In this document: one piece after another, positions 4,597 through 44,581 of the stretch
How the letters are laid out: each line of letters opens with the position of its first letter
Numbering within the stretch: position 1 is the first letter of the stretch
Source of the DNA: Myxococcota bacterium
GTDB lineage: Bacteria > Myxococcota_A > UBA9042 > PHBI01 > JAWLBL01
Length of the DNA: 64,000 nucleotides
Reading direction: 5' to 3'
NCBI GenBank assembly: GCA_041687695.1
Contig: JAWLBL010000006.1
Location: 224,001-288,000 of the forward strand
Notes under the pieces: generated by a model
The model's input: the letters and a program-made list of their open reading frames with translations, nothing else
What the model was told of the DNA's origin: nothing
The model's database searches: none
Position numbers and translations under genes: made by a program

Positions 4597-6327
4597 TCAG
4601 GCGACCTGGCGCAGGCGCTGGAGCAGCCGCGGGACCACGTCCTCGGGCCCGCAGCGGAGGAAGGTCACGCCCGCGGGGCGCAGGGCCGCCTGGGCCAGCT
4701 CGAGGCTGTGGGACACGCGCAGGCGCGCCACGTCGAGCACGGCGTCCTCGAGGGCGTCGGCGCCGGCGGCCGCGCCCTCGAAGCCGGGGTGATCGGGGCA
4801 CACGACGACCACCGAGTGGCGGTGCCGGCGCGCGGCGGCGGCGATGTGCCGCAGGGCCTCGAGGTCGTCGGCCGAGTAGAGGTCGCTCATGATCACGATG
4901 GCGTGTGGGCCGCCGCGGGCCGTCAGCACGTGCTCCATCGCGGCCTCGAGGCCGCGGGCCTGGGCGCCGGGGCGCGGCGTCGGATCGAGCGGCAGCGGCA
5001 CGCCCAGGTGCCGACAGAAGGCGCGCAGGATGGCGCGCTGCGGGTCGCGGGCGTAGCTGAAGAGCGGGACGACCGGGCGGGACAGATCCCGGGCCACCAG
5101 CTCGGCGTCGAGGCGGCGCTGGGCCAGCTGCACGAGGCGCGCCAGATCGTGAGGGCTGGCCCGAGGGTCGGCGCGCTTGGGATCGCGGGTCGCGACGCGG
5201 CAGGTGACCCCGTCCTGGGCCTCGAGCCAGGCGGCGGCGCGCTCGACCAGCTCGCGGTCGGTCAGCTCGGTGCGGCCCTCGTGGACGAGGTGCGGCACCT
5301 CGAGCAGGGCCTCGAGCAGCCGCACCAGCTGAGGGCGGCCGCGGCCGGGCGTCACCTCGAGGCGGACGGCCTCGTCGTAGACCACCAGGCCCGCGCGATC
5401 GCCCCGCCCCACGACCAGATCGAGCAGGTGATGGGCCGCCTCGAGCACGTAGTCGATGCGCGCGCGGCCGGGAGGGCCCCAGAACATGCTGGGCGAGGCG
5501 TCGACCAGGACGAAGGTGCTCAGGACCAGATCCGACTCGAACTCGCGCGCGATGAGCTTGCCGCGGCGGGCCGAGGCGCGCCAGGCGATGTGCTTGAAGG
5601 GGTCGCCGGCCTGGTGGTCGCGCAGCTCGCGGATCTCCATGCCGGTGCCGCGGCGGCGCGTGTGGTCGGCGCCGGCGCGCTCCTGCAGCGAGGTGCGCGT
5701 GGCGCGCAGCGGGGCGTCGGGGCGCGCGGCGTAGCGCCGGGGCAGGACGGTGACCCGCGCGCGGGCGGGCACCCAGACGCGCACGCCGAACAGGCCGTGG
5801 GCGACCTCGGCCGAGGCGACGAAGCCCTGGAAGAAGGCGTCGCCGACGCGGCGGGGCGTGAGCTGCAGGGTGCCTTCGGCGGGCGGCGCGGCCGCGGTCA
5901 TCGTGACGGCGGCCTCGAGCGGGGCGACCGGCGCCGGGGAGAGCGTGACCACCCGCGGCGACAGCCCCGGCGCGACGTCGAGGCGGAAGGGCAGGGTGAG
6001 CGCCCGGCCCAGCGGGATCCGCAGCTCGCCCGGCTCGGCGACGCCCGGCCGGAGCGTGGCGATGAGGCCGCCGTGGCGCAGCCGGTGCCGGGCCACGCGC
6101 GCGACCGCGTAGGCCCAGGTCAGGAGGACCAGGGGCAGGCCCCCCAGGGCGGTCGCGATGGGCCGGTCGAAGGCCACGCCCACCAGCAGGAAGGTCAATC
6201 CGGTCAGCGCGAGCGTGCGCCCCGCCGGCGTGAGCCACAGGCGCGGACCGCGCGGCGTCGGCCCGCTCGGGGACCGCGCCGACGCGCCGGCCCTGCTAGG
6301 GCTCCTCGGTGTACGGGACCTCGGCAA
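4597..6327 (-). CDS. DUF58 (vWA-like) domain membrane protein
   Basis: GMEIRELRDHQAGDPFKHIAWRASAR, LVDASPSM, IMSDL motifs; follows MoxR; start uncertain. Confidence 0.88.
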   Translation of the reverse strand: MPRSRTPRSPSRAGASARSPSGPTPRGPRLWLTPAGRTLALTGLTFLLVGVAFDRPIATALGGLPLVLLTWAYAVARVARHRLRHGGLIATLRPGVAEPGELRIPLGRALTLPFRLDVAPGLSPRVVTLSPAPVAPLEAAVTMTAAAPPAEGTLQLTPRRVGDAFFQGFVASAEVAHGLFGVRVWVPARARVTVLPRRYAARPDAPLRATRTSLQERAGADHTRRRGTGMEIRELRDHQAGDPFKHIAWRASARRGKLIAREFESDLVLSTFVLVDASPSMFWGPPGRARIDYVLEAAHHLLDLVVGRGDRAGLVVYDEAVRLEVTPGRGRPQLVRLLEALLEVPHLVHEGRTELTDRELVERAAAWLEAQDGVTCRVATRDPKRADPRASPHDLARLVQLAQRRLDAELVARDLSRPVVPLFSYARDPQRAILRAFCRHLGVPLPLDPTPRPGAQARGLEAAMEHVLTARGGPHAIVIMSDLYSADDLEALRHIAAAARRHRHSVVVVCPDHPGFEGAAAGADALEDAVLDVARLRVSHSLELAQAALRPAGVTFLRCGPEDVVPRLLQRLRQVA

Positions 6328-30112: not shown

Positions 30113-30357
30113 GAGGGCCTCGAGCGCCGGCAGCCGGCTCGGGGCGTCAGAGGCCGTCGAGGGCCTGCGACAGGTCGCGTCCGGCCCTCGACACGCTCTG
30201 AGGGCCTGCACCAGACCGCTCTCGGTCCTGCAGAGGCCGTCGAGCGCCTGCACAAGACCGCTCTCGGTCGCGCAGAGGCCATCGAGCGCCTGCAACAGGT
30301 CGCTTCCGGAGCCGTCAGAGCGCTTCGAGCGCCTGCAGCAGGTCGGCTTCCAGATCG
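30113..30357. repeat. Degenerate ~42-bp tandem repeat derived from the adjacent gene's 3' end
   Basis: Anchor gag(c/g)gcc(t/g)gc at 30122, 30159, 30200, 30242, 30284 and 30327 (last one inside the CDS). Confidence 0.8.
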
Positions 30358-33773: not shown

Positions 33774-34058
33774 TGAATCCTCCTGATGACGGAACCGGTC
33801 GTCTCGGCCCTGCGGGCGCGCGTGGACTCGCGCAACCTCGCGAAAGGACTGAAGAAAACGCTCTCGCTGGACCTCGAGTCCGCGGGACTATGTCACACCA
33901 CCTGGGGCCCCGCAAGCGAAGCGCCCGAGTGGACGCGCCGACCAAAACGCCGGCCCGGCGCCAATAGTTCACGTGGGCCCCTAGAAATTTCCGCGGCGCG
34001 CGATGTGCTATACCGGACCTCGCTCAAAGCGCCGACCCACCGGACGGAGAATCCAGCG

Positions 34059-35702
34059 ATGCAGCTCGGGACGATGACTCATGGACGGCGCGGCCGGCTC
34101 GGTCGCCTGGCGCGGGCGCTGCTCCTGCTCGCGCTGACGCTCGGAGGCTGCCGTGGCGCCGCGGGCGAACCTCCGTCAGTGGCCGCCGCGCCGCCGCCCG
34201 TTCAGCCGGCCCGGGCTGGTCTCGGGTCCGAAGCGGGGCCCGACAGCGAAGCCGTCCCGCGCCCGCAGGCCCAGGCGGCCCCAACGGCCGAGGCTGCGTC
34301 GGCCGGACTGGGCGCTCTGGCCAGCCCCGACGCTCTGGCCGCGGCCATCGAGCGTCACCACAGCGACCAGTGGTACGGCGTCTACATGCTGGGCAAGAAG
34401 ATCGGGCACGCGCGGGTCTGGATGCGGCCGTCGGGCGAGGGCGAGCCTGGCGCGTACGCGACCGGGACGGAGCTCGAGATGACGGTCCGCGGGCTGCTCG
34501 GCGAGGCGCGCATGGACATGAGCGAGGCGCGGTTCTACGCAGCCGAGGCACCTCATTCGCTGATCGAGACCCGCATGCGCTCCGAGGCGTCGGGCGTCGT
34601 CGACGAGCGGGTAGGGCGCAACACTCCCGAGGGCCTGGTGGTCACCCGCACCACGGCGGGGCGCGCCGCCGCGCCGCGCACCATCGCCCGGAGCCAGGAG
34701 TCGCTCGCGTCGCTCTTCGTGACGATGCCGACGGACGCCGCGTCGCTACGCCCCGGGCAGTCGGCCCGGGCGCCCTGGTTCAACTGGGAGGCCGAGAAGG
34801 ACGACTTCGTCTCGGTGACCGTGGCGTCGGTGCGGCCGGGCACCCACGCCGGCGTCGACACCACGCTGGCCACCCTGGACGTGAAGTACGAGAAGATGGG
34901 CCTGTCGGCCACCAGCCTGGTCGCCGGGGCGGGCGTGGTCGTCGAGACCGCGCTCGGCCAGGGCCTGGTCCTCAAGCTCGAGGAGAAGGACGTCGCGCGC
35001 AGCGACGTCGTGGGCCTGGACGTCATGGGCTCCGGCGTGCCGGTCGCCAAGAAGCTGGGACGCCCTCATGACATCATCGAGCTGACCCTGAAGGTGAAGA
35101 CCCCCGGCGACTACGCCCTGCCGAGCGCCGCCAACCAGGAGGTGACCCCCCTGGAGGACGGCTGGTCCCGCGTCGTCCTGCGCTCAAGTCCCGGCGCGCC
35201 CGTCACGACCGACGAGCGCGCCGCCGCCCTCGAGAGCGACGCCACCATGGACGCCGACTCACCCAGCATCCAAGCCAAGGCCAAGGAGCTGACCGAGGGC
35301 GCGGCCGACGACGCCGACAAGGCCCGACGTCTGGGCGCCTGGGTCTTCCAGACGCTCGACAAGCAGCTGGCGACGCACCTGCCGACCGCTTCGACCGTCC
35401 TGGACAAGAAGCTCGGCGACTGCACCGAGCACACCTGGCTCTTCGTCGCCCTGGCCCGCGCCGCCGGCCTGCCCGCGCGCCCGGTCTACGGCGTCGGCTA
35501 CACGGGCGACGGCCACGCCAGCTTCGGCTACCACGCCTGGGCCGAGGTCGCCATCGACGGCCACTGGGTCGCCGTCGACCCCACCTGGGGCGAGCCCGTC
35601 GCCGACGCCACCCACCTGCGCCTGGCCTCCGAGCTGAGCGACGTCGCCGCCATCATCGGCGGCCTCGAGATCCAGGTCGAAGGCGAGCCGCGCCGCCGCT
35701 GA
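34059..35702 (+). CDS. Transglutaminase-like domain lipoprotein
   Basis: Lipobox LGGC; GDCTEH, YHAWAEV, WVAVDPTWG Cys-His-Asp triad. Confidence 0.9.
   Translation: MQLGTMTHGRRGRLGRLARALLLLALTLGGCRGAAGEPPSVAAAPPPVQPARAGLGSEAGPDSEAVPRPQAQAAPTAEAASAGLGALASPDALAAAIERHHSDQWYGVYMLGKKIGHARVWMRPSGEGEPGAYATGTELEMTVRGLLGEARMDMSEARFYAAEAPHSLIETRMRSEASGVVDERVGRNTPEGLVVTRTTAGRAAAPRTIARSQESLASLFVTMPTDAASLRPGQSARAPWFNWEAEKDDFVSVTVASVRPGTHAGVDTTLATLDVKYEKMGLSATSLVAGAGVVVETALGQGLVLKLEEKDVARSDVVGLDVMGSGVPVAKKLGRPHDIIELTLKVKTPGDYALPSAANQEVTPLEDGWSRVVLRSSPGAPVTTDERAAALESDATMDADSPSIQAKAKELTEGAADDADKARRLGAWVFQTLDKQLATHLPTASTVLDKKLGDCTEHTWLFVALARAAGLPARPVYGVGYTGDGHASFGYHAWAEVAIDGHWVAVDPTWGEPVADATHLRLASELSDVAAIIGGLEIQVEGEPRRR
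35631..35702 (+). repeat. Left copy of a 72-bp direct repeat (last 24 codons of the transglutaminase gene)
   Basis: Matches 37711-37782 at 70/72. Confidence 0.95.
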
Positions 35703-35777
35703 GGGTCAAGGCTCGTCCATCGGGCGGACCGATGTCCCCGAGTCGACACCGGTTCGCCCGGCTGAACCTCGCTTCCC

Positions 35778-35831
35778 GCTTCCTTTATCTGCAGACTTTC
35801 CAGGCCTGGAAGGACGCCGTATAAAGGAAGC
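35778..35831 (+). promoter_or_regulatory. Nested palindromic operator overlapping a sigma70-like promoter
   Basis: gcttcctttat/ataaaggaagc arms and inner ttccaggcctggaa share one centre; tttcca-17bp-tataaa. Confidence 0.7.
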
Positions 35832-36875
35832 ATGCGCCGCATCGACGCCATCGGTGTTCGAGAGATCCCCCGGCTGATGGAGGAGTGGCTCGGGTCCCCA
35901 GTCGAAGCCGAGGCGGAGGTCCGAAACGGCAAGGATCGCCACGGTCTCGTCCTCCGTCACGACGGCACGATCTTCGTCGTGGAGGTGAAGCGAGCGGACG
36001 ACATCGCCCTCCTGGACTCGGCACGCCATCAACTCGCACGGTACATCGCGTCCCGCACCGATGCAGTCGGTGTGCTGGCCGTCCCGTACATGGGGCCCAA
36101 GGCTCGGGAGTTCGCTCGCACGGTGGGCTTGTCGTGGCTCGACCTGTCGGGCAACGCCGACATCCGCGGACCGGGCGTGCGGATCTTGGTCGAGGGCAAG
36201 CCCAACCGCTTCGCCTCCCCTGGTCGCCCGTCCTCGGCGTTCTCCGACAAGGCGTCGAGGATCTCCCGGGTGCTGCTGGTGGAGCCTGAGCGATGGTGGC
36301 GGCAGGCGGAGGTCGTGGAGGCCACCGGCCTGAGCAGCGGCTTCGTCAGCAAGGTCATCGGTCGGCTCGACGACGACGGCCTCCTCGACAGACTGACGGA
36401 GGACCGAAGCTTCCGGCCTCGCTCACCCGACCTGCTCCTCGACGCGTGGGCGCAGGTCTACGACTTCCGCAAGCACGACATCATCCGCTTCCACGCCCTC
36501 GGCCGCACCGGGGCCGAGGTCACCGAGGCCGTAGCCCGCCAGCTGGCGGGGCGCTCCGACCTCCAATGGGGGGCGACGGGGCTGGCGGCGGCGTGGCGGT
36601 GGACCCGGTACGCCGACTTCCGCCTCGCCACGTTCTTTGTCTCGGCGCCCCTGCTCGACCCGGAGGCGCTGGGCCTGCGGCGTGTCGAACAGGGCGAGAA
36701 CGTCTGGATCGCCGTCCCTCGGGACGAAGGCGTCCTGTACGGCGCCGAGGAGGTCTCGGGCGTCCGCTGCGCCCATCCGGTGCAAGTCTACCTCGACCTG
36801 CTAGGCCACCCCGAGCGAGCCGAGGAGGCCGCCTCCTATCTCCGCACCCACAAACTCGCTTGGGGGCGGTCATGA
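35832..36875 (+). CDS. AbiEi-like type IV antitoxin / transcriptional regulator
   Basis: FVVEVK N-domain, WLDLSGNA, wHTH (QAEVVEATGLSSGFVSKV), LLDAW, GENV, HPVQVYLDLL..ERAEEAA. Confidence 0.8.
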   Translation: MRRIDAIGVREIPRLMEEWLGSPVEAEAEVRNGKDRHGLVLRHDGTIFVVEVKRADDIALLDSARHQLARYIASRTDAVGVLAVPYMGPKAREFARTVGLSWLDLSGNADIRGPGVRILVEGKPNRFASPGRPSSAFSDKASRISRVLLVEPERWWRQAEVVEATGLSSGFVSKVIGRLDDDGLLDRLTEDRSFRPRSPDLLLDAWAQVYDFRKHDIIRFHALGRTGAEVTEAVARQLAGRSDLQWGATGLAAAWRWTRYADFRLATFFVSAPLLDPEALGLRRVEQGENVWIAVPRDEGVLYGAEEVSGVRCAHPVQVYLDLLGHPERAEEAASYLRTHKLAWGRS

Positions 36876-37705
36876 AGTTCGACAGCGCCTCCGACTACCC
36901 GCCCGGACTTGCAGTCGACGCCCGGCGTATGTGCCTCCACGTCGCCACGATCCTCGGTGACCTCCTCGACGAGATGGTCGTAGTGGGTGGGCTCGTGCCG
37001 TACCTGATCGTCGACCAAGCCGCCGCCCACGAGGCCCACGTCGGCACGAGGGAGCTCGACCTCGGCCTGTCCATCGCCGTGCTCGATGACGAGCGCTACC
37101 GGGAGATCAGCGCCCGGCTTCGGGACCGGGGCTTCGAGCCCAGCCGCACCGAAGAGGGGAAGGTCACCCGGCAGACATGGGTGCTGCCGGGTCAGCGGAT
37201 CACCCTTGATTTCCTCATCCCCCGCACCGACGGCGGCCCGAGCCCCGGCAAGCTCCAGAGCCTCGAAGGCGACTTTGCCGCCATCGTCACTCCGGCCCTT
37301 TCGCTCGCCTTCAGGGACTTCGACTCCGTCACCATCGAGGGGCCGACGCTGGCCGACGAGGTGGCGGCCCGCACGGTCAAGGTCTGCGGCCCGGCGGCGT
37401 TCGTGGCCATGAAGGCTCATGCCATCAACCTCAGGGCCAAGGACAAGGACGCCTACGACCTCGTCTACGTCCTCAGGCACTACGGCGACGGCACCGTGGC
37501 CGACGTGGTAGCCCGGTACGTCGCCTTCGCCGAGGTCGATGAGGCGAAGCAGGCGCTCGACATCCTCCGAGCAGACTTCGCCTCCGAGAAGCACCTCGGG
37601 GCCGTGCGGGCCGCGAGGTTCAGGGCCGGGCGCCCAGACCCCGCACTTCAGGCCGACGCCTTCGGCTACGTGCAGGAGTTCCTGAAGCGGGTCGGGAGGC
37701 GCTGA
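36872..37705 (+). CDS. AbiEii-like nucleotidyltransferase toxin
   Basis: ATGA coupling to the antitoxin; VVVGGLVP..HVGTRELDLGL, LDFL, MKAHA..KDAYDL. Confidence 0.75.
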   Translation: MKFDSASDYPPGLAVDARRMCLHVATILGDLLDEMVVVGGLVPYLIVDQAAAHEAHVGTRELDLGLSIAVLDDERYREISARLRDRGFEPSRTEEGKVTRQTWVLPGQRITLDFLIPRTDGGPSPGKLQSLEGDFAAIVTPALSLAFRDFDSVTIEGPTLADEVAARTVKVCGPAAFVAMKAHAINLRAKDKDAYDLVYVLRHYGDGTVADVVARYVAFAEVDEAKQALDILRADFASEKHLGAVRAARFRAGRPDPALQADAFGYVQEFLKRVGRR

Positions 37706-37710
37706 CCTCG

Positions 37711-37782
37711 GAGCTGAGCGACGTCGCCGCCATCATCGGCGGCCTCGAGCGCCAGGTCGAAGGCGAGCCGCGCCGCCGCTGA
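37711..37782 (+). repeat. Right copy of the 72-bp direct repeat
   Basis: Starts 5 bp after the toxin stop; copies the host gene 3' end including its TGA. Confidence 0.95.
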
Positions 37783-37830: not shown

Positions 37831-38232
37831 TCAGGCGAGCTCGAGGACCACGCCGTCCTCGGGCTCATCGCCCTTGGGCTCGTGCGTCTCGATGATCTCG
37901 ACCAGCCAGTCGAACACCGTCGGCCCTTCGCCAGCCCGGGCCGCGTCGAGTTCACGGCTGACCCTCGGCCGGTTGGCTTGATGACAGCGCACCAGCTGCC
38001 GTTCCAGGATCCGGCACGTCTCCGCATGACCAAGGCGCTGTCGACTCTGCGCCGAGTTGACCCACCGAAGGATGAAGCCCTCGTCGGGCGTCCCGAATCC
38101 ACCGCGGAGTATGTCGTTGAAGGCGTCCAGGTTGCGCCCCCAGGAGGCCGCCGGGACCAGGACGCGCTCCACCTCATCGTAGAACTCGCCGAGGGTAGAG
38201 AAACGCGCTCCATCGATTACGTAGAGCTTCAC
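37831..38232 (-). CDS. Barstar-family ribonuclease inhibitor
   Basis: GTG 38232 overlaps the upstream TGA; IDGARFSTLGEFYDEV..WGRNLDAFNDILRGGFG. Confidence 0.88.
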   Translation of the reverse strand: MKLYVIDGARFSTLGEFYDEVERVLVPAASWGRNLDAFNDILRGGFGTPDEGFILRWVNSAQSRQRLGHAETCRILERQLVRCHQANRPRVSRELDAARAGEGPTVFDWLVEIIETHEPKGDEPEDGVVLELA

Positions 38233-38522
38233 GGCTCGTCCAGCGGACCGAAACGATGCTCCAGCTCCGCGTCGAGGTCGTCGTCGTCGATCCCGAGGCC
38301 AGCCTCCGATTCCGCCAGCCCTTGATTGACGGCTGCCAGGAAGCGATCGCGTTCCGTCAGGCGGTCGTAGTCCTCGGGTGAGACGAGGACGCCGGCTGGG
38401 CGCCCGCGCTGCGTGATGACGATGGGACGGCGGTCCTTCTGCAGGCGTCGCATGATGCTGGAGGCGTGCGCCTTGAACTCGCCGATCGGGATGATGTCGT
38501 CCTGAACCTGCAGCGGCTTCAT
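38229..38522 (-). CDS. Phd/YefM-family antitoxin
   Basis: IIPIGEFKAHAS..PIVITQRGRPAGVLVSPEDY; acidic tail; SD caggag. Confidence 0.9.
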   Translation of the reverse strand: MKPLQVQDDIIPIGEFKAHASSIMRRLQKDRRPIVITQRGRPAGVLVSPEDYDRLTERDRFLAAVNQGLAESEAGLGIDDDDLDAELEHRFGPLDEP

Positions 38523-38611: not shown

Positions 38612-39703
38612 CTAGACGTTGAACCGGAAATGCATGATGTCGCCGTCGTGGACGACGTACTCCTTGCCTTCCACGGCCATCTTGCCGGCGGCCTTGCACT
38701 GGGCCTCGCCGCCGAGGCGCACGTAGTCGTCGAACTTGATGACCTCGGCGCGGATGAAGCCGCGCTCGAAGTCGGTGTGGATGACGCCGGCGGCGCCCGG
38801 GGCCTTGGTGCCGCGGGTGATGGTCCAGGCGCGCACTTCCTTCACGCCGGCGGTGAAGTAGGTGATGAGGCCGAGCAGCTCGTAGCCGGCGCGGATGAGG
38901 CGGTCGAGGCCCGACTCCTCGAGGCCGAGGCTGTCGAGGAAGTCCTTGCGCTCCTCCTTGTCCAGCTCGGAGATCTCCGCCTCGATGGCGCCGCAGATGA
39001 CCACGACGCCGCTGCCCTCGGCGGCCGCGTGCTGGCGGACGCGCTCGACGTGCTCGTTGCCGTCCGGCAGGCTGCCCTCGTCGACGTTGGCGGCGTACAG
39101 GACGGGCTTGCTGGTCAGCAGGAACAGCTCGCGGAAAGCGGCCTTCTGGTCGTCCTCGACCTGGAACGACCGGCCGGGCTTGCCCTCGGACAGCCACACG
39201 CGCAGCCGCTCGAGCATCTCGACCTGAGGCTGCAGCTTCTTGTCGCCCTTGGCCTGCTTGGCCACGCGGTCGAGGCGCTTTTCGACCGAGTCCAGGTCCT
39301 TGAGCAGCAGCTCGGTGTCGATGATGCCGATGTCGCGGATCGGGTCGACGCTGCCCTCGACGTGGACGACGTTCTCGTCCTCGAAGCAGCGCACCACGTG
39401 GACGACCGCGTCGGTGTTGCGGATGTTGGCCAGGAACTGGTTGCCCAGGCCCTCGCCCTTGCTGGCGCCGCGCACCAGGCCCGCGATGTCGACGAACTCG
39501 ACCGTCGCCGCCTGCACGTTCTGCGGCTGGACCATCTCGGTCAGCTTGTCCATGCGCCGGTCCGGCACGGGCACGATGCCCACGTTCGGCTCGATGGTGC
39601 AGAACGGGTAGTTCGCCGCCTCGGCCCCGGCGGCCGACAGCGCGTTGAAGAGGGTGGACTTGCCCACGTTCGGCAGGCCGACGATGCCCAGGCTCATTCC
39701 CAT
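38612..39703 (-). CDS. ychF: Redox-regulated ATPase YchF
   Basis: [43 protein letters not shown]. Confidence 0.98.
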
Positions 39704-44493: not shown

Positions 44494-44581
44494 TGGTGCG
44501 AAAGGGGGGACTTGAACCCCCACGAGCGTATTGCTCACTAGAACCTGAATCTAGCGCGTCTACCAATTCCGCCACTTTCGC
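44494..44581 (-). tRNA. tRNA-Leu(CAG)
   Basis: gcgaaag acceptor, ggtagacgcg D-arm, ctaga-ttCAGgt-tctag, long variable arm, ggttcaagtcc, encoded CCA. Confidence 0.97.

Follow-up and report, generated by a model that had tools for sequence, protein, structure and literature searches.

How does a toxin–antitoxin (TA) operon come to lie between the 3′ end of a chromosomal gene and a second copy of that end, with no recombinase gene nearby? The question is raised by a 64-kb stretch of contig C6 (“the window”) from the Myxococcota genome G000 (7.97 Mb, 63-contig assembly), in which an AbiEi/AbiEii-like pair sits directly behind a transglutaminase-like gene and is enclosed by direct repeats of that gene's last 77 bp. 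The answer towards which we lean, with modest conviction, is a homology-anchored insertion of an acquired AbiE/MenAT-type operon, joined illegitimately at its other end and brought in by no recombinase of its own. The initial annotation had described an acquired, integrase-free AbiE cassette whose insertion duplicated the 3′ end of a protein-coding gene, and this much is supported, no empty allele being available for comparison. Taken singly, this TA acquisition is ordinary and its footprint known; what gives it value is that the same genome has 13 such cases.

The repeats lie at 35626–35702 and 37706–37782 (both on the forward strand), with three mismatches and a start-to-start spacing of 2080 bp, and comparison with the whole genome reproduced them exactly as annotated. 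One mismatch (35630/37710, TCC/TCG) is synonymous; the other two (35670–35671/37750–37751, ATC/CGC) give isoleucine on the left and arginine on the right. At the cost of one more mismatch the match reaches 4 nt further left (81 nt, 95%, E = 5.5e-31 against all 7.97 Mb), and nothing in the rest of the genome covers more than 57 of these 81 nt (best E = 2e-4); the cassette, too, is single-copy. The left repeat serves the transglutaminase gene as its functional 3′ end, up to the TGA, and keeps a conserved hydrophobic residue. At the equivalent site, hydrophobic in 13/13 readable same-order orthologues, the right copy has the arginine, and judged by this comparison it is the downstream copy, an orphan of the gene's last 77 bp, that is the decayed one. 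The 2003-bp insert consists of a 129-bp leader, the AbiEi_2 gene and the AbiEii gene, and nothing else. As annotated, the right repeat abuts the toxin gene, starting at the base directly after its TGA, so close that att arm sites would not fit in between. The right junction (37702–37705, forward strand) is formed by the toxin's last bases, which share a 3-nt microhomology with the transglutaminase gene at 35622–35624, and the position of the toxin stop recurs in close homologues of 277 aa. Two other origins were set aside: an integron or tRNA target, the nearest tRNA lying at 44494 and the repeat being coding sequence, and, by reasoning, retro-insertion, the insert carrying an operator and stopping at the toxin stop codon.

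That the cassette has a specific target is not supported: the same scar, with unrelated cargo, is seen in this genome at the ends of twelve further genes. A genome-wide scan, based on our own simple gene caller (5566 genes), yielded 13 loci, the window included, at which 28–125 bp of a gene's 3′ end are repeated 0.7–3.7 kb downstream, each time in a different gene. The twelve sister loci are found at C2:79090, C2:125734, C3:31549, C5:200479, C11:85927, C12:146657, C15:46457, C21:162892, C31:21693, C31:94101, C36:24023, and C50:9266 of G000 (most of them in L245–L260). Their targets include genes for an alcohol dehydrogenase, a CapD-like protein, a deoxynucleoside kinase, DAHP synthase, a PPDK-domain protein and a DUF1722 protein, several being accessory genes. 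Their cargo, mostly metabolic or lipoprotein genes and for the most part encoding no nuclease, includes CotH with YceI, YhcG, an oxidoreductase, a Rieske protein, and lipoproteins; one insert holds an RHH antitoxin gene whose partner is frameshifted. Exactly one copy lies in a called gene in 22 of the 62 two-copy repeats, and in 12 of these 22 it is the 3′ end, with the fragment downstream (binomial p = 3e-12 against random placement); the thirteenth locus (DAHP synthase) was found outside this tally. Measured from the stop codon, the distal repeat end is at 0 to +13 nt in nine of 12 loci, and in four it coincides with the stop. Repeats are still 100% identical at four of the 13 loci, and the orphan copies at other loci are, by the indels and the stop that they carry, decaying. 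At the C12 locus the downstream copy stops 7 nt past the repeat and the first copy continues into a different tail, which suggests that the target's C-terminus was replaced.

Contig C6 encodes no recombinase of the tyrosine, large serine or resolvase type, which bears out the annotated lack of one nearby, and eight recombinase queries found no match in the 13 inserts. Genome-wide there are three recombinases of the tyrosine type and three of the large serine type, none of them inside the inserts, and 13 targets are more than these six could plausibly serve. Elements of the IS1634 family make long target duplications; no match to this family, the only insertion sequence family searched, was found in the genome. 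The 13 inserts share no terminal repeats, and their ends no common motif (best score 11; random sets 10–14). Open frames for comEC, dprA, Ku, and LigD-N are present. Gene-end duplications elsewhere numbered none in 0.8 Mb sampled from two relatives, G006 and G011 (≈1.3 expected, too small a sample to interpret), none in 0.27 Mb of transglutaminase loci, one in 0.40 Mb of ychF loci and one in 0.32 Mb of AbiE loci. An interspersed repeat family of ≈200 bp gives more than 200 BLAST hits in G000 (e.g., where the C50 insert begins, L255, and at C31:93286–94093); its segments occur in 6/13 inserts versus 17/100 random 2-kb windows, with none in the AbiE insert. The insert in the CapD-like gene (L247:2596–3477), in which the partner of the RHH antitoxin is GNAT-like by eye and has no Pfam match, looks like another inserted TA pair whose toxin is damaged.

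Footprints of this kind have been described for restriction–modification (RM) genes as insertion with long target duplication (ILTD; Nobusato et al., 2000, as cited; Furuta, Abe & Kobayashi, 2010, PMC2853133), with a repeat of more than 30 bp that often spans a stop codon and an insert of less than 20 kb without mobile genes, mostly in competent species. The mechanism is left unresolved in the 2010 account, which suggests DNA breakage by RM enzymes. What is seen in the window fits an ILTD-like event: the insert is below 20 kb (2003 bp), the direct repeat above 30 bp (77 bp), no mobile-element gene is present, the repeat spans the translation stop and leaves the target intact, repeat length is variable, and the host has competence genes. 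The cargo differs: here it is a TA pair, and the 12 sister loci hold for the most part metabolic or lipoprotein genes. As R and M cargo was the search criterion of Furuta et al., the window is ILTD-like rather than a member of their RM class. Because the sister cargo is not made of RM genes, a DNA break made by the cargo cannot explain the class; the 13 loci thus weaken the published idea of breaks by the cargo's own restriction enzyme and point to host recombination, in a question of mechanism open since 2000. Small variable segments are reported to be flanked mostly by repeats shorter than 30 bp (PMC2884548). Among the titles listed in literature searches none was on a TA pair with a long target duplication, which does not establish its absence from print.

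The annotation of the cargo as AbiEi/AbiEii-like holds, both proteins scoring above the Pfam cut-off. Behind the first 75 bp of the leader (35703–35777) lies an operator-like element that adjoins the ATG (35778–35831), composed of an 11-bp perfect inverted repeat (35778–35788/35821–35831) around a 14-bp palindrome (35798–35811); the layout recurs upstream of the pair's relatives, and the element is likely to be bound by the antitoxin. The annotated operator therefore stands; a promoter can be proposed from position only, no sigma-70 consensus having been found. The AbiEi-like antitoxin or regulator (35832–36875, 347 aa) matches PF09952 (AbiEi_2, 32.9 bits versus a cut-off of 21) and has a helix-turn-helix region with a MarR_2 match below cut-off; the overlapping gene for the AbiEii/MenT-type nucleotidyltransferase toxin (36872–37705, 277 aa) matches PF08843, and all these features are on the forward strand. 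This order of overlapping antitoxin and toxin genes with AbiEi and AbiEii domains is that of an AbiE/MenAT TA system. The toxin's structure model (pLDDT 93) has MenT1 (E = 6.5e-5) and MenT3 as its top Foldseek matches in the PDB, that is, a Pol-beta nucleotidyltransferase fold. A PDB sequence search with the toxin profile returned chance matches only, and NCBIfam had no match for either protein. With AbiE of S. agalactiae (PMC3985639) and with MenT1/MenT3 (PMC11375011), as described there, the pair shares the bicistronic antitoxin–toxin operon, the inverted-repeat operator, the motifs GG, T-R-[DE]-x-D, KAH, and KDAYD, and the MenT-like fold; it differs in being a distant subfamily (12%–16% identity to solved MenT, weak PADLOC scores) and in the first metal-binding aspartate, which is glutamate in the window toxin.

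This substitution lies at codon 61 (37052–37054), within motif II (T59-R60-E61-L-D63). Motif II was present in 117 of 120 listed proteins, with aspartate in 116 and glutamate in the window toxin only. It lines up with T39-R40-D41 of MenT1, an equivalence drawn by motif and not by residue-level structural alignment; D41 of MenT1 binds Mg2+ (PMC11375011), and the change D67E in S. agalactiae AbiEii abolished toxicity (PMC3985639). Of the two motif II aspartates expected in an active toxin, then, only the second is in place, and the window toxin is predicted to be blunted and to have lost its toxicity. Since E61 would blunt the toxin, the islet is now likely a passenger and not an addiction module, so that the self-stabilising minimal islet of the initial annotation, with glutamate in place of the first catalytic aspartate and a decayed right repeat, is not supported. 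In general, an intact-looking AbiE match may be catalytically blunted. The toxin has a match in 36/401 genomes of the phylum sample, its own included.

Judging from the neighbourhoods of its relatives, the TA family of the window is ordinary island cargo. One relative stands beside an integrase (L031), and three lie in 2.6–3.2-kb islets between tRNA/tmRNA-end repeats (L088, L129, L134); at L032 (6814–6856/8870–8912), L093, L155, and L180 the pair is tightly flanked by repeats of other types (GC-rich intergenic, operator-like, palindromic). At L100, from another genome, 51 bp of the mcrC 3′ end (90%) are duplicated at 2004–2054 and 6094–6144; they enclose an AbiEi_4 gene, the AbiE pair of this family, and one hypothetical gene, and an integrase was not seen there. 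The same pair at other gene-end repeats, proposed earlier as a check, was thus found (mcrC, tRNA/tmRNA, and ychF ends), but without a clear excess: once duplicates had been removed from ≈125 loci, along with those that had less than 800 bp on either side or no antitoxin match, flanking repeats occur at 8/50 (16%) versus 16/200 (8%) and 9/120 (7.5%) in the controls, counts only, and the relatives are not clearly enriched.

The 3′ end of ychF, which lies close by in the window (38612–39703, reverse strand, by profile match), looks like an integration hotspot in this class, often neighbouring this AbiE family. Its last 16 nt have a downstream copy in 12/46 loci, one with an integrase match; AbiE matches lie downstream of ychF in 6/46, four of these loci having been chosen because the pair was present, and ychF is within ≈2.4 kb of the transglutaminase orthologue in 4/14 same-order loci. 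Copies of a ≈15-bp ychF-end core, tandem modules and an L031-type tyrosine integrase mark such elements (L079, L216, L070:62, L074:3961, L230, L243), and of the three ychF-end motifs of L079 (2960, 4450, 6588) two bracket the pair. The window shares with them the neighbourhood, the AbiE family, and the orientation toward ychF; it has neither the tyrosine integrase that they sometimes carry nor a core copy, none being recognisable in the window, leader included. A literature search on ychF and attB turned up only pneumococcal papers, seen as titles.

On the account that we favour, homology-anchored insertion, a related strain would have carried the pair just behind its transglutaminase gene, brought there by ychF-targeting islands that carry this family; a hotspot that often carries the pair makes such a donor state plausible. 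Donor DNA would have entered the cell and paired through the transglutaminase gene, and its far end would have been joined, directly or after circularisation and a single crossover, at the 3-nt microhomology 77–81 bp before the resident stop, pushing the resident gene end downstream, where it would have been decaying since. Duplications of 109–950 bp of the homologous locus arose in E. coli when incoming DNA had formed a circle and integrated by a single crossover (PMC3240628). Homology-facilitated illegitimate recombination (HFIR) and single-crossover integration, as reported there, have in common with the window one homologous anchor and one illegitimate joint with short microhomology; they differ in that the experiments used E. 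coli plasmids and in that the window repeat is shorter (77 bp versus 109–950 bp). Between the routes first offered, mobilisation in trans or homologous recombination, it is the latter that fits best, and 13 loci without recombinase remnants speak against the former.

Several points weigh against this account. No empty or donor allele was seen in the genomes sampled, none of which is of the same family, and the cassette is also present in a second assembly. The usual outcome of HFIR is a deletion in the recipient, not a duplication (PMC3240628). The divergence between the copies (14/154 fourfold versus 21/429 zerofold sites, p = 0.07) is what copies identical at first would give once the fragment began to decay, and so does not show a donor allele; a window that keeps no ychF core copy makes the donor's history conjecture. 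A 3′-end bias is also to be expected from selection for intact genes (PMC2853133), the limits of the 13-locus class were chosen after the data had been seen, and genes for competence and non-homologous end joining are common and show no role here. We suggest only tentatively that the lineage may routinely acquire genes of any kind, defence pairs among them, by a route that belongs to the host and needs no recombinase: DNA would be taken up, anchored by homology in a gene's 3′ end, and joined by Ku/LigD-type end joining, and a duplicated gene tail would remain. Were this so, 13 dated scars in one genome with mostly non-nuclease cargo would make ILTD a general host pathway and not a property of restriction enzymes, and toxins gained by this route would be disarmed later.

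The most serious competitor to homology-anchored insertion, possible though distinctly less probable, is a remnant of the cis-mobilisable element (CIME) type, in which a site-specific element entered the transglutaminase 3′ end, restored the gene, and was later deleted down to the TA pair. By the definition in PMC5704250, cargo without integration or transfer genes between a gene's 3′ end and its copy is the geometry of attL and attR with gene restoration. The repeat ends do cluster at stop codons, a deletion joint would account for a toxin gene that directly adjoins the repeat, and the same TA family occurs between tRNA/tmRNA-end repeats and ychF-end cores. Yet the transglutaminase end is poorly conserved as a target, is duplicated at none of 20 orthologue loci, and has no known cognate integrase or attB; an exact 29-nt stretch of the repeat had no match in viral contigs, space for arm sites is lacking, and the genome has 13 unrelated targets, accessory genes among them, none with a recombinase remnant. 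Gene-end repeats without an integrase need not, then, be att sites. We consider it improbable that foreign DNA was inserted in one step at a chromosome break, with no donor linkage, repair synthesis or a staggered cut duplicating 30–125 bp. Identical copies at the origin would agree with the site-class divergence and with the four loci whose repeats are still identical, Ku and LigD are present, and double-strand breakage is suggested by Furuta et al. (PMC2853133). Breaks would, however, hardly pile up repeat ends at stops with no spread beyond, most of the cargo lacks a nuclease gene, and neither an IS1634 transposase nor common terminal repeats were found.

An islet still active, stabilised by its toxin and moved in trans by a helper recombinase, is very unlikely. 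In its favour, the repeats fit closely around the operon, AbiE is carried by integrative and conjugative elements and makes plasmids more stable (PMC3985639), and eight of 50 relatives are repeat-flanked, the mcrC case among them; against this stand E61 at the catalytic aspartate, the decayed right copy, a single-copy cassette with no linked helper candidate, and a repeat flanking of 16% versus 8% and 7.5% in controls, with a kind of repeat that differs from locus to locus. That two strains were fused in a metagenome assembly is scarcely credible, even with 63 contigs and no sequencing runs listed. In a second NCBI assembly, seen as proteins only, AbiEi, AbiEii, barstar, Phd, and YchF are the same residue for residue and the transglutaminase and DsbA are variants, which makes the misassembly named earlier as a refuter unlikely, and indels and a stop in orphan copies elsewhere speak of decay.

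The transglutaminase-like gene (33786–35702, forward strand, start uncertain) is intact and matches PF01841 (Transglut_core, E = 1e-21). It stands beside a dsbA-like gene, an arrangement kept across the order, with orthologues 41%–51% identical in 14 same-order genomes. The 20 orthologue loci, from distant relatives and with no same-family genome in the sample, contain neither a second copy of the gene end nor an AbiE pair, and downstream of the gene they have varied genes or none. Outside the repeats, right behind ychF, lie two accessory genes of lower GC, both on the reverse strand: a Barstar-family gene without a barnase (37831–38232, PF01337) and a solo Phd/YefM antitoxin gene without a toxin (38229–38522, PF02604).

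Other repeat arrangements were observed along the way. In a reverse case (L254:2353–2507/8033–8187) an osmC 3′ fragment lies upstream of the intact gene; at L257 it is the 5′ end of a P-type ATPase gene that is duplicated, and L264 shows an array of gene stubs in many copies on C5. A tadA-like deaminase gene lies between two tRNA-like repeats (L262:1708–1800/2860–2952), and a 2.2-kb islet between tRNA 3′-end repeats (G000 C7:243225–245531) has no gene called within. In the window itself, about four repeats of ≈42 bp are arrayed at 30148–30352 between a PEGA-domain gene and a gene for a Cys/Met pyridoxal phosphate enzyme.

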